Assembly: GCF_016026235.1 (NCBI RefSeq)
Contig: NZ_CP065613.1
Strand: one strand, 5' to 3'
Length of the DNA: 64,000 nucleotides
Origin: Escherichia coli
Lineage (GTDB): Bacteria; Pseudomonadota; Gammaproteobacteria; Enterobacterales; Enterobacteriaceae
This document shows positions 54,953 through 61,356 of this stretch, piece by piece. Below the pieces are notes generated by a model. That model saw only the letters and a program-made list of their open reading frames with translations, had not been told where the DNA came from and did no database searches. The position numbers were made by a program, and so were the translations under genes. The number at the start of each line of letters is the position of its first letter. Within the stretch, counting starts at the first letter, position 1.

Positions 54953-55765
54953 TCAGCACTCAACAAACTGATGCTGTTCATTAAGACGATAGCGGACTCC
55001 GGCTCGAATATTGTTTTCACCTTCAATGGCGACGGCGAAGCGAACTCTTTCGCCGTCATGATATGCCAGTGCGGCGCTTCCCCCTGGCCCGAGAATAATT
55101 GAGTCGACCACGCCCGTGCTCACTACCGTTGAATTTTCACCGCTGGCAATGATGTGTACATTGTCGCCGCTGTTGGCAATTCTGGCGTTTGCGCCAAAGC
55201 TGGCGATTTGCGCCAGGTCACCATTACTGGCGACATGACACCGTTCACCCAATGTACAAACGCGTACTCGCATTCCGGTGTTCGCAATCCGACTACTATC
55301 TCCAGCGCTGCTTATCCGCGAAGAATTACCGGTTACAGCAACCCGTGCGCGTTCACCGGAGCTGCCAATGTGACTGTTAAAGCCGACACTTCCAATCCGC
55401 ACGCTATAACCCATACTGGCAATTTGCGCGGCATACCCAGCGGTTGCGATTCGGGCGTTATCCTCACAACAGCCGATGCGAGCATGATCGTCGCTGCGGG
55501 CAAACTGACTGCAAAATGGTATCTCTCCGTGGTCTGTGGCCAGTTTTTGCATAGAGGAAACTTCCTGATGCGCGAAGTTTTCATCCGCCAGCCATTTTTT
55601 CCACGCATACTCAACCAGACTCTCCGCCCAGTCCGTATATCCTTCCTCAATCAGTGCATGATGAATATCGGCATAACTACCGCCGCGTGGGAAATGGCGC
55701 AGGAACCAGCGATACATCACCGCTCCGATACGCCATTCTCGCAGGTCTGCTCGTGTAATGATCAT
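54953..55765 (-). CDS. ydhT: FhmA/YdhT-family protein of the ydhYVWXUT operon
   Basis: 270 aa; last gene of the operon. Confidence 0.85.
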   Translation of the reverse strand: MIITRADLREWRIGAVMYRWFLRHFPRGGSYADIHHALIEEGYTDWAESLVEYAWKKWLADENFAHQEVSSMQKLATDHGEIPFCSQFARSDDHARIGCCEDNARIATAGYAAQIASMGYSVRIGSVGFNSHIGSSGERARVAVTGNSSRISSAGDSSRIANTGMRVRVCTLGERCHVASNGDLAQIASFGANARIANSGDNVHIIASGENSTVVSTGVVDSIILGPGGSAALAYHDGERVRFAVAIEGENNIRAGVRYRLNEQHQFVEC

Positions 55766-55768
55766 TCG

Positions 55769-56554
55769 TTAGTGCCGGTGATAGCCATCGACCATGCTTT
55801 TAAAGGTTTCGTGTGGCGTACGCCCCGTGGTGCAAAGATAAAGATGACCGAAGATAAAAAAGAGGCTTATAAATGCCAGAGCAAAATGCGCCTGCAATAA
55901 CCAGTATCTTACGCCAGGAAACACATCTCCCACGGCTTGCGGATAGAGACACAACAGCCCCGTCAATAGTAACAACGGCAGCAATCCATACATGACACCA
56001 ACATAGGCGACCTGCTGTAAGGGATTAAATTTAGACTGGCTTGTTGCCGGGAAAGGATGTTCTTCCCCCTGCATAATGCCAAACAAATAAAATCGCGTTT
56101 GTTTTGCCGCTCGTTCCAGCCACCCCTGACGACGAATGCGATAGTGGTGACCATTATCCCCAACGGCATTGATCAGCACAAAGCCGAGCCAGCATGCCAG
56201 TAACAAAAATCCGCAAACTTCATGCACCGCAACCAGACTTTTAACCGCAGTTGCGCCCACCAGCGCAAAGTGATTTATCAGCCCACTTGCCAGCAACAAT
56301 ACAAAGAGTAACGCATTCGACCAGTGCCATAATCTGACCGCTTTGCTGTAAAGATAAATCTTCTCACCATGATCGGTGGCTGATTTCTTCACGCCACGAG
56401 CACGAAGCAAGGCGTGCAGCCCCAGCACCAACCACATCCCAACCAGCAATACTCCGGCAATGATCAACCACACCGGCCAAAATTCGGGAGTGAACTGTGG
56501 CACATAGTTCGCTAACTGGCTCTGAAACTGTTCAGCATGTTGCGACGGGTTCAT
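55769..56554 (-). CDS. ydhU: PhsC/NrfD-like membrane-anchor (cytochrome b type) subunit
   Basis: 261 aa polytopic membrane protein. Confidence 0.85.
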   Translation of the reverse strand: MNPSQHAEQFQSQLANYVPQFTPEFWPVWLIIAGVLLVGMWLVLGLHALLRARGVKKSATDHGEKIYLYSKAVRLWHWSNALLFVLLLASGLINHFALVGATAVKSLVAVHEVCGFLLLACWLGFVLINAVGDNGHHYRIRRQGWLERAAKQTRFYLFGIMQGEEHPFPATSQSKFNPLQQVAYVGVMYGLLPLLLLTGLLCLYPQAVGDVFPGVRYWLLQAHFALAFISLFFIFGHLYLCTTGRTPHETFKSMVDGYHRH

Positions 56555-57219
56555 ACATTTTCCTTTTTAATCAAATGTTGACCGAACCGGCGATACAGAT
56601 GCGGTTTCCCGGCACCAGGTAGCTGATATTGATAGTATTTATTATCCTGCAACCACGCCTGAATTTCTGGGCTATCTTCGCGACCAAAGATCAATGCGTG
56701 TTCCGGACAGGCGCTGACGCAAATGGGCGGAAAGCCTTTTGCCAGTCGGGACTCAGCGCAGAAATCACATTTATCTGCCACTTTAGTGACAGGGTTAAGG
56801 TAGCGAACCTGGTACGGACAAGCGCCAATGCAATAACTGCAGCCGATGCACTGCGATTTTTCTACCCGCACGATCCCCTGCTCATCACGCCACGACGCCC
56901 CTGTCGGGCATACGTCGATGCACGGAGCATCTTCGCAGTGCTGACATGACTGGCGAAAAAAGTGATACTGCGTTTCGTTGTCGTTATCGGTGACTGGAAT
57001 GTGTGCTATCGATAAACGGCTTCCCTGAGCGGGGACGTGGTTAGTTTTACGGCATGCGCGGGCGCAAATATTACAGCCATTGCACCGTGACTCGTCATGA
57101 ATCATGGCATACCGAACTTCCTTTTCTTGCCTCGTGTTCGCTAACAGAGAAGACGCAGAACCAGTAAAAAAGATTACTGTTCCCATCCCCAGAACAAATT
57201 TGCGTCGAGTGAAGGACAT
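56551..57219 (-). CDS. ydhX: 4Fe-4S ferredoxin-type subunit with Tat signal
   Basis: 222 aa from ATG at 57219 (MSFTRRKFVLGMG twin-arginine motif); four CxxCxxCxxxCP-like clusters. Confidence 0.85.
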   Translation of the reverse strand: MSFTRRKFVLGMGTVIFFTGSASSLLANTRQEKEVRYAMIHDESRCNGCNICARACRKTNHVPAQGSRLSIAHIPVTDNDNETQYHFFRQSCQHCEDAPCIDVCPTGASWRDEQGIVRVEKSQCIGCSYCIGACPYQVRYLNPVTKVADKCDFCAESRLAKGFPPICVSACPEHALIFGREDSPEIQAWLQDNKYYQYQLPGAGKPHLYRRFGQHLIKKENV

Positions 57220-57282
57220 CTGATTATCCCCTAATGCAGTGGCTGCAACTGTCCACCCTATCCATGACATCTCCCTGAAATT

Positions 57283-60036: not shown

Positions 60037-60056
60037 GATTTTTTCCTTTGCAAGAT

Positions 60057-60683
60057 TCACACAGTAATATCTTTCCACTCGATAATTTTTAACGCCCCTG
60101 TTGGGCAGGCGTTTGCGCATTCACCGCATAACACACATTTCGAGGATTTTTTACTTTCGGTATTTACGGTGGCCATCATCCACGGGCATGCCGTAGTACA
60201 GGCGCTACAGCCAATACAGCGTTTATGATCGACGGTAATACAGCCTTCTTTCTGCTGCCAGGTAATCGCACCAATCGGGCAGACGTTCATGCATTGCGGC
60301 TCTTTGCATTGACGGCAGGTGTCCGCGGTATAGTTGAGATCGCCATACAGGCCGCCGCCAGAGCCAACCCCGTTGTCGCCAAAGAAATAATTGCGATGGA
60401 TTTTGATACGGGAGAAGAATGTCCCTACTGAGCCATCGTTGAAGTTGGTACAAGAGATTTCACAGCGGTGGCAACCCGTGCATCGCGCTCGCTGGGTCAC
60501 CAGCACCCCTTTGGGTGTATTTATCAACCCTACTGTGCCGCTATCAATATCTTCCTGTTTGCAACCCAAAAGTGACAGTAACGCAGGGGCAATTGTTAGA
60601 CCAGCAAGGCCTTTTCCTGATATACGCAAGAATTCTAATCGCGTTAAGCCAATATCTAATAGTGGACGATCAACCGGGTTCAT
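60057..60683 (-). CDS. ydhY: 4Fe-4S ferredoxin-like protein
   Basis: 208 aa; multiple CxxCxxCxxxCP motifs; first gene of the operon, followed upstream by a 460-bp AT-rich control region. Confidence 0.9.
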   Translation of the reverse strand: MNPVDRPLLDIGLTRLEFLRISGKGLAGLTIAPALLSLLGCKQEDIDSGTVGLINTPKGVLVTQRARCTGCHRCEISCTNFNDGSVGTFFSRIKIHRNYFFGDNGVGSGGGLYGDLNYTADTCRQCKEPQCMNVCPIGAITWQQKEGCITVDHKRCIGCSACTTACPWMMATVNTESKKSSKCVLCGECANACPTGALKIIEWKDITV

Positions 60684-61146
60684 TTATTTCGCATCCTCTT
60701 CGCAAACACAGTGCTGACAATTCAGCAGCCTGATATTAAGCATTCAACTAATACGCTGCTGACTCTGTCCCCAACACCAGATATTTTCCCTAACCCGATA
60801 GTGTATGAGAAAAGATTTAACGCCGATAAACTAATCCTTTATGGTTTTATGGTTAGGAGAAAAAATAATGTGATTATTCTGAGCCCTTAACATTGATCGT
60901 TATCAATTAAAATTACAAAGCAAGAAATTATAAGTGAACTGATATTTATTATCATTTGAAATAAATTTAACTTAAGCGACAATTATTTGTGACGTTCATT
61001 GCAGAAAATAAAAATAATATTATCGTTATAAATTAAAATACATACCGCAATTCGTATAATTTCAGCAGTTGTTATTTAGAATGATTAACTGGACCGCAAC
61101 TGAAGCAAGAATATCAGGATGAAGCTTACCGCCTCATCCTGAATGG

Positions 61147-61356
61147 TCATTTTACCAGTGCGTTAATGACGGTTTCCATCGCCTGCTTTTCCAGCTCACT
61201 GCGCTGAATGCGTTTATTGGCTAATGCTGTACGTAATACGCCTGCGATAACAATATGCTTTGGTTCCTGCCCCAGATCGCGCATTTCCAGCACAACTTTA
61301 CCGACAACTCTGCACATTTCTCGGTACAGTTCATCCTCTTTTGTCCGATTTCCCAT
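61147..61356 (-). CDS. fumD: Small fumarase-like protein FumD (YdhZ)
   Basis: 69 aa (MGNRTKEDELYREMCRVVGKVVLEMRDLGQEPKH...). Confidence 0.8.
   Translation of the reverse strand: MGNRTKEDELYREMCRVVGKVVLEMRDLGQEPKHIVIAGVLRTALANKRIQRSELEKQAMETVINALVK

Follow-up and report, generated by a model that had tools for sequence, protein, structure and literature searches.

What does the ydhYVWXUT locus encode in a strain of Escherichia coli in which the adjacent gene, ydhS, has been broken, and is it still the operon known from K-12? We addressed this question in a 64,000-nucleotide stretch of an E. coli genome (RefSeq assembly GCF_016026235.1, contig NZ_CP065613.1), the whole of which is referred to below as the window. 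We put at roughly 85% the probability that the locus is the core-genome ydhYVWXUT operon of E. coli, i.e., the K-12 operon itself, and that it is intact in the strain studied. The operon is already known and correctly annotated, and as far as annotation is concerned there is nothing new; what is new here is a rare 8-bp duplication close to the promoter and a set of structural hints concerning YdhW, YdhT and YdhY.

The six genes, delimited by the listing of open reading frames and by alignment to K-12, are co-oriented on the minus strand between ydhS and fumD and keep the order ydhY (60057-60683; 208 amino acids), ydhV (57934-60036; 700 amino acids), ydhW (57283-57930), ydhX (56551-57219; 222 amino acids, 16 of them cysteines), ydhU (55769-56554; 261 amino acids) and ydhT (54953-55765; 270 amino acids). 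The intergenic spacings from ydhY to ydhT are 20, 3, 63, -4 and 3 nt, and gene spacing in the range of -4 to 63 nt is compatible with a single transcription unit, which the K-12 literature describes as starting from PydhY. In gene-by-gene alignment to K-12 MG1655 each of the six genes aligns end to end in a single block with unchanged start and stop codons, and no internal stop or frameshift was found in any of them. The proteins differ from those of K-12 by 0 (YdhY), 2 (YdhV), 6 (YdhW), 1 (YdhX), 3 (YdhU) and 4 (YdhT) amino acid changes. The NCBIfam equivalog cutoffs are exceeded by YdhY, YdhV, YdhW, YdhU and YdhT; YdhX has no dedicated model. A first-pass annotation of the window had described the six-gene operon as complete and ydhS as broken, and both statements hold: all genes are full length, and ydhS is interrupted by the insertion sequence IS1.

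The surrounding 11.5 kb are present at 80% coverage or more in 5,405 of 5,426 complete E. coli genomes, and the neighbourhood therefore belongs to the core genome. Frameshifts or stops appearing on re-sequencing would speak against an intact operon, and two public assemblies show none in it. GCA_900449985.1, assembled independently from the same lineage, equals the window over 19.3 kb save for one extra A in ribC, and since it is identical across the operon, the intactness of the latter does not depend on one assembly. A second assembly, GCA_001907395.1, is identical until its contig ends within IS1. The extra A (window position 48205; position 4645 of the GCA_900449985.1 locus) changes the called ribC product from 213 to 182 amino acids and is probably a long-read homopolymer error of that NCTC assembly.

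The first two genes encode what appears to be the catalytic pair. YdhV carries both Pfam domains of the AOR family, AFOR_N (1.1e-67; 228 bits against a cutoff of 29.8) and AFOR_C (2.9e-48; 165 bits against a cutoff of 27), scores 1372 bits against NF007354 (cutoff 868) and has AOR and FOR enzymes as its best solved relatives in a PDB sequence search, which supports its assignment as the predicted AOR/WOR-family pyranopterin catalytic subunit. Four cysteines, C307, C310, C314 and C558, are present and do not vary in 22 homologues, the alignment having been made with 20 representatives of identities down to 30%; by analogy with the AOR enzymes they would be the ligands of a [4Fe-4S] cluster next to the pterin. 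YdhV was reported to bind a bis-molybdopterin form of molybdenum (bis-Mo-MPT) and to prefer molybdenum over tungsten (PMC13328260, PMC9103625). The substrate was described as poorly defined in the first-pass annotation and is still so: by 2022 none had been found (PMC9103625), and as of June 2026 the enzyme had been given neither an activity nor a physiological role (PMC13328260). The 21 nucleotide differences between ydhV and its K-12 counterpart bring about two replacements, P329L and A700V, and the L329/V700 allele is also found in other E. coli. P329L was considered as an inactivating change and rejected, column 329 being freely variable and the allele common to other E. coli.

YdhY scores 436.7 bits against NF007382 (cutoff 213), is ferredoxin-like with 4Fe-4S domains by Pfam as well, and has as PDB relatives AorA (8c0z_C, 9mqx_E) and the WOR5 small subunit (6x6u_B), all of which supports its identification as a putative WorS-type 4Fe-4S polyferredoxin. 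Its N-terminus, LTRLEFLRISGKGLAGLTIAPALLSLLGC, contains a single-arginine motif, TRLEFLR, that resembles the signal of the twin-arginine translocation (Tat) pathway, followed by a hydrophobic region and then by a lipobox-like LLGC. This signal-like stretch takes up residues 1-41 (60561-60683), and its Tat-like motif, hydrophobic region and lipobox-like Gly-Cys are conserved in Edwardsiella and Jinshanibacter, which suggests that YdhY may be an exported and possibly lipidated Fe-S subunit.

The electron-transfer subunits are of a different kind. The N-terminus of YdhX, MSFTRRKFVLG, contains a canonical Tat motif, TRRKFVL; the protein has a Fer4_11 domain and PsrB (2vpw_B, 3e-34) as its best PDB match, and its best NCBIfam match, the NrfC equivalog, is reached with 249 bits, which is under the cutoff of 377.6. 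These matches support the view of YdhX as a predicted Tat-exported four-cluster ferredoxin of the PsrB/NrfC type. Upstream of its annotated start, ydhX continues as an open frame for another 17 codons, and there is an ATG at 57270 (window 57220-57282). Counted from the annotated start, the Tat motif occupies residues 4-10; with the upstream start the n-region would be unusually long. YdhU matches PF01292 at 3.9e-31, shows five hydrophobic segments in a hydropathy scan and scores 458.9 bits against NF011582, the PhsC equivalog (cutoff 204), which supports a putative PhsC-like cytochrome b membrane anchor; a PDB sequence search with YdhU gave no match. The protein assignments of the first-pass annotation, i.e., a ferredoxin-like YdhY, AFOR domains in YdhV, a Tat motif in YdhX and a PF01292 cytochrome b in YdhU, are all in agreement with these results.

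The two remaining proteins, YdhW and YdhT, have no signal peptides and form narrow families of 246 and 47 clusters, respectively, that are found in Escherichia, Citrobacter, Edwardsiella and Jinshanibacter. Neither is matched by a model in the Pfam set that was scanned, and the newer families YdhW_C and YdhT_N are found in precomputed annotations alone. The structure model of YdhT (mean predicted local distance difference test score, pLDDT, of 92.6) combines a helical domain at the N-terminus with a beta-solenoid of 9-residue repeats, and its structural neighbours are generic beta-helix proteins only. The model of YdhW, of moderate confidence (pLDDT 71), contains two winged-helix-like repeats; YdhW is acidic, with an isoelectric point of 4.4, which argues against DNA binding. 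The predicted folds suggest a redox role for neither protein. Both genes stay with ydhY, ydhV and ydhX in Jinshanibacter and Edwardsiella at 41-44% identity: the Jinshanibacter cluster (locus L015, 2828-9002) has the complete set of six, ordered as in E. coli, and the Edwardsiella tarda cluster (locus L014, 3690-8954) has ydhY-V-W-X-T without ydhU, its neighbours being the nap operon and a gene for a NarQ-like sensor. A cytoplasmic part in assembly or escort is the most likely function of YdhW and YdhT, and it would fit the finding that YdhV purified alone had neither a functional Fe-S cluster nor activity (PMC9103625).

How the operon may be controlled is indicated by the spacer upstream of ydhY (60684-61146), 463 bp long with a GC content of 32.8% against 50.4% for the window; just 0.19% of 463-bp segments are as low in GC, and the minimum of the whole 64 kb sits in the spacer. 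The AT-rich region that the first-pass annotation described upstream of the operon is thus real, and it does carry an anaerobic regulator site, as had been expected. A perfect FNR consensus (TTGAT-N4-ATCAA), TTGATaacgATCAA, is located at 60893-60906 on the minus strand, with its centre 216.5 bp upstream of the ydhY ATG; it is the sole perfect match in the window and is unchanged in K-12, 042 and 90-9280. In K-12 the ydhYVWXUT operon has an FNR peak in chromatin immunoprecipitation (ChIP) sequencing and a class II site at -42.5 (Myers et al. 2013, PMC3688515), and by analogy with what was published for K-12 the box would be the class II FNR activator site of the ydhY promoter. The published spacing of -42.5 would place the transcript start at 60857 and would give a 5' untranslated leader of 174 nt (60684-60857, minus strand). 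Between the box and this start the sequence is identical to that of K-12, including the presumed -10 region. A Fur-box-like sequence is found at 60941-60959 on the minus strand, at about -93, with 14 of 19 matches, a score reached by 4.7% of shuffles of the region; it agrees with published data on the ydhY promoter, namely a ChIP peak of Fur and regulation by Fur in CFT073 (PMC7157518). In vitro, sigma-S RNA polymerase was reported to favour this promoter (PMC3141248). According to papers that cite the work of Partridge (2008), NarL and NarP repress the operon on nitrate or nitrite, and NarL protection at the ydhY promoter is compared to that at dmsA. A scan of the spacer for the perfect NarL/NarP heptamers (TACYYMT) that might have been expected there found none, and their number in the entire window is at chance level.

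The leader differs from that of K-12 by a 1-bp insertion of A and by a tandem duplication of 8 bp, AACCATAA twice in a row, at 60839-60854 on the minus strand, i.e., at about +4 to +19 of the presumed transcript. Alignments show that K-12, 042 and 90-9280 lack the duplication, and it occurs in none of the full-length matches in 5,394 complete E. coli genomes; in the search of the 5,396 genomes that have the segment, the best full-length matches have 94.4% identity owing to the gap. It is also present in the independent assembly GCA_900449985.1 (locus L011) and is therefore not an artefact of a single assembly. A megablast search with a 47-nt probe over the duplication gave no match, to which low-complexity masking may contribute; the absence of the duplication from other genomes is judged by the ranking of the genome search and the alignments and not by this probe. 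In K-12 the segment that is duplicated here overlaps TAACCATaaAGGATTA, which matches the 7-2-7 NarL/NarP consensus (TACYYMT-N2-AKRRGTA) at 12 of 14 positions and lies at +3 to +18; 0.66 matches of this quality are expected per 14 kb. In the window the element is 8 bp further downstream (60832-60847, minus strand) and reads AAACCATaaAGGATTA, with 11 of 14 matches, which is at chance level. If the candidate site is used, the duplication may weaken the binding of NarL/NarP to it. The predicted fold of the leader has the same minimum free energy with and without the duplication.

Taken together, these features describe a product that is probably a quinone-linked, membrane-associated AOR/WOR-type molybdoenzyme of Class V. 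In the 2026 classification the Class V WOR enzymes are membrane-associated, have a periplasmic orientation and prefer molybdenum; their WorS subunits are taken to face the periplasm and to carry a Tat signal or a transmembrane segment, and E. coli YdhV was assigned to this class (clade 41; PMC13328260). Further traits of Class V, an adjacent worL-worS pair (here ydhV and ydhY) and a co-encoded cytochrome subunit (here YdhU), are present in the operon. We infer a periplasmic orientation because of this classification and because of the signal-like N-termini of YdhX and YdhY. YdhV would be the catalytic subunit with bis-Mo-MPT and one [4Fe-4S] cluster, and electrons would travel along a path formed by YdhU (cytochrome b with a quinone site), YdhX, YdhY, the [4Fe-4S] cluster of YdhV and bis-Mo-MPT, with YdhU exchanging electrons with the quinone pool. 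YdhW and YdhT would assist assembly or escort in the cytoplasm, and expression would be anaerobic under FNR and damped by nitrate or nitrite, via NarL/NarP, and by Fur.

Several points weigh against this picture. When recombinant YdhV was purified on its own, its Fe-S cluster was defective and the protein showed no activity (PMC9103625). YdhY has no true twin-arginine in TRLEFLR, and the periplasmic site of the YdhY-YdhV pair is accordingly not secure. The roles proposed for YdhW and YdhT come solely from fold class and synteny. As for the control of the operon, the transcript start at about 60857 is carried over from the K-12 spacing, and the 7-2-7 candidate for NarL/NarP is statistically weak, even in K-12.

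The first of these points that bears on topology, the YdhY motif, allows for a different arrangement, in which YdhV-YdhY would stay in the cytoplasm together with YdhW and YdhT, and YdhU would pass electrons across the membrane to a periplasmic YdhX. If this were true, the system would be a transmembrane electron conduit and not a fully periplasmic enzyme. Not only does YdhY have no RR pair, but its distant homologues have TRL or TRQ at this place; the canonical Tat motif is confined to YdhX, and YdhV, like YdhW and YdhT, has no signal peptide. YdhU, moreover, belongs to the FdnI/PhsC family of cytochromes b, the members of which span the membrane with haem. On the other hand, the conserved hydrophobic region of YdhY and its invariant lipobox-like Gly-Cys would serve no purpose if the protein were cytoplasmic, Class V WorS proteins are classified as carrying a Tat signal or a transmembrane segment and as facing the periplasm (PMC13328260), and the E. 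tarda cluster, having no ydhU, is a misfit for an obligatory transmembrane conduit. We regard the split arrangement as possible and clearly the less probable of the two, and in what follows we keep to the exported, quinone-linked Class V enzyme as the preferred reading.

A further proposal can be made tentatively, as one that is itself rather doubtful: YdhW and YdhT would be an unrecognised pair of dedicated cytoplasmic maturation or escort factors for an exported bis-Mo-MPT enzyme that hitch-hikes on YdhY with its lipobox and single-arginine Tat-like motif, and the lineage with the duplication would be a natural mutant with altered nitrate/nitrite repression. Such an escort pair, if real, would account for the inactivity of YdhV when it is expressed alone and for its substrate having stayed hidden.

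It may also be asked whether the operon, intact as its sequence is, has been altered in its regulation or has started to decay in this lineage, so that the duplication and the private amino acid changes would reflect relaxed selection, like the IS1 next door. The duplication is shared by none of the full-length matches among complete genomes, P79H and V185A of YdhT and T172S of YdhU are found neither in K-12 nor in eight other E. coli loci, and ydhW has accumulated 6 replacements among its 13 nucleotide differences from K-12. These observations are outweighed by others: the operon is free of stops and frameshifts, ydhV has only 2 replacements in 21 differences and ydhY none, the YdhW and YdhV alleles are common to other E. 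coli with an intact ydhS, the FNR box and the presumed -10 region are unchanged, and the predicted fold of the leader is unaffected by the duplication. Altered regulation or incipient decay is thus an unlikely reading.

That the spacer and leader encode a cis-regulatory RNA, e.g., a riboswitch of the molybdenum cofactor (Moco) type or a small RNA, and not merely protein-binding sites, is very improbable: the presumed leader is long (174 nt) and the genes downstream of it encode a molybdoenzyme, but no Rfam family was matched over 53500-62000 at E<=1 and the leader folds no more stably than its shuffles do (z of -0.66 and -0.94), so that nothing points to an RNA element.

Downstream of the operon, ydhS (52560-54941, plus strand) converges on ydhT, their stop codons being 11 bp apart. 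It is broken after about codon 404, IS1 splitting it into a 5' part (52560-53771) and a 3' part (54540-54941). The IS1 copy (53772-54539, minus strand) is 768 bp long, has terminal inverted repeats and insA/insB, and is flanked by a 9-bp target duplication, CGTGAAGCG, at 53763-53771 and 54540-54548. The ydhS gene of E. coli 042 also contains an IS1 in this orientation, which is another copy (91% identity) inserted 160 bp farther downstream (locus L001, 2033-2800); as both the copy and the position differ, the 3' part of ydhS was struck independently in two lineages. Other top matches over the ydhS region list IS1X2 or IS1414.

It was also asked in the first-pass annotation whether transcription reading out of IS1 reaches the operon as antisense. 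IS1 ends only 414 bp downstream of the ydhT stop and contains a single weak plus-strand sequence resembling a promoter (53879-53908, 9 of 12 positions) that faces ydhT. The idea of antisense transcription into ydhT can nevertheless hardly be upheld: insA, insB and the promoter-like site of the left inverted repeat (IRL; 54532 to 54505), i.e., the transposase promoter, all belong to the minus strand and are directed away from ydhT, promoter-like matches are near chance (3 found, 1.4 +/- 1.2 expected), a terminator-like hairpin of the plus strand (54818-54836) lies between IS1 and ydhT, and the ancestral ydhS already converges on ydhT, so that IS1 more likely cuts such transcription than adds to it.

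On the other side of the operon, fumD (ydhZ; 61147-61356, minus strand) encodes a protein of 69 amino acids that is identical to that of K-12, matches PF10965 and is annotated as fumarase D. It is not a member of the operon and is separately terminated by an intrinsic terminator (61114-61142, minus strand) with a 12-bp stem followed by a T-rich tail, and this hairpin makes up the distal ~33 bp of what had been taken for the control region. The range of 54953-61356 originally drawn around the operon is accordingly right for the operon part, 54953-60683, whereas its upper end, which coincides with the fumD start codon, is ~670 bp too long and takes in fumD.

The investigation of this operon is of interest since E. 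coli has no AOR-family (Class V WOR) system besides YdhYVWXUT. Its control by FNR, NarL/NarP and Fur has already been published. Given that ydhW and ydhT keep their conserved linkage to the other genes and that YdhY begins with a signal-like sequence, co-expression of the whole set of six suggests itself as the route to an active enzyme, and the lineage with the rare promoter-proximal duplication could be used as a natural experiment on the NarL/NarP operator.

How does the locus compare with known systems? The K-12 operon (b1674-b1669) agrees with it in all six genes, in their order, orientation and lengths, and in its flanks (ydhS, fumD and ynhH-pykF-lpp); the FNR box is identical, and nucleotide identity is ~99%. 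The strain studied differs from it by the 8-bp duplication and the 1-bp A insertion in the leader, by IS1 in ydhS and by 16 amino acid replacements spread over five proteins. With class II FNR promoters of the dmsA and nrfA type the ydhY promoter shares a consensus FNR box at about -42 and, according to the literature as relayed by citing papers, repression by NarL and NarP on nitrate or nitrite; it differs from them in that its spacer is devoid of perfect heptamers and the weak 7-2-7 candidate is displaced by the duplication.

Among the enzymes themselves, YdhV has in common with the tungsten/molybdenum aldehyde:ferredoxin oxidoreductases (Pyrococcus furiosus AOR, 1aor, and FOR, 1b25; Aromatoleum aromaticum AorABC, 8c0z and 9mqx) both AFOR domains, AFOR_N and AFOR_C, as well as the four putative cysteine ligands, and YdhY resembles AorA, the small Fe-S subunit of AorABC (8c0z_C, 9mqx_E). 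In contrast to these enzymes, YdhV is ~100 residues longer, with only its N- and C-terminal parts aligning in sequence, prefers molybdenum over tungsten, has no known aldehyde or other substrate (PMC13328260, PMC9103625) and is tied to membrane and Tat components and not to a soluble ferredoxin or a flavin adenine dinucleotide (FAD) subunit. The remaining part of the system is akin to PsrBC, PhsBC and NrfC: YdhX, with its Tat signal, comes nearest to PsrB, and YdhU is over the cutoff of the PhsC equivalog. The catalytic partner, however, is YdhV, which has AFOR domains only and does not belong to the dimethyl sulfoxide reductase family with its bis-MGD cofactor (MGD, molybdopterin guanine dinucleotide), and the system is therefore not a member of the Psr/Phs group, though its B/C module is Psr/Phs-like. 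Judged by its components, the system would work like an AOR catalytic pair grafted onto an electron-transfer module of the Psr/Phs B/C type.

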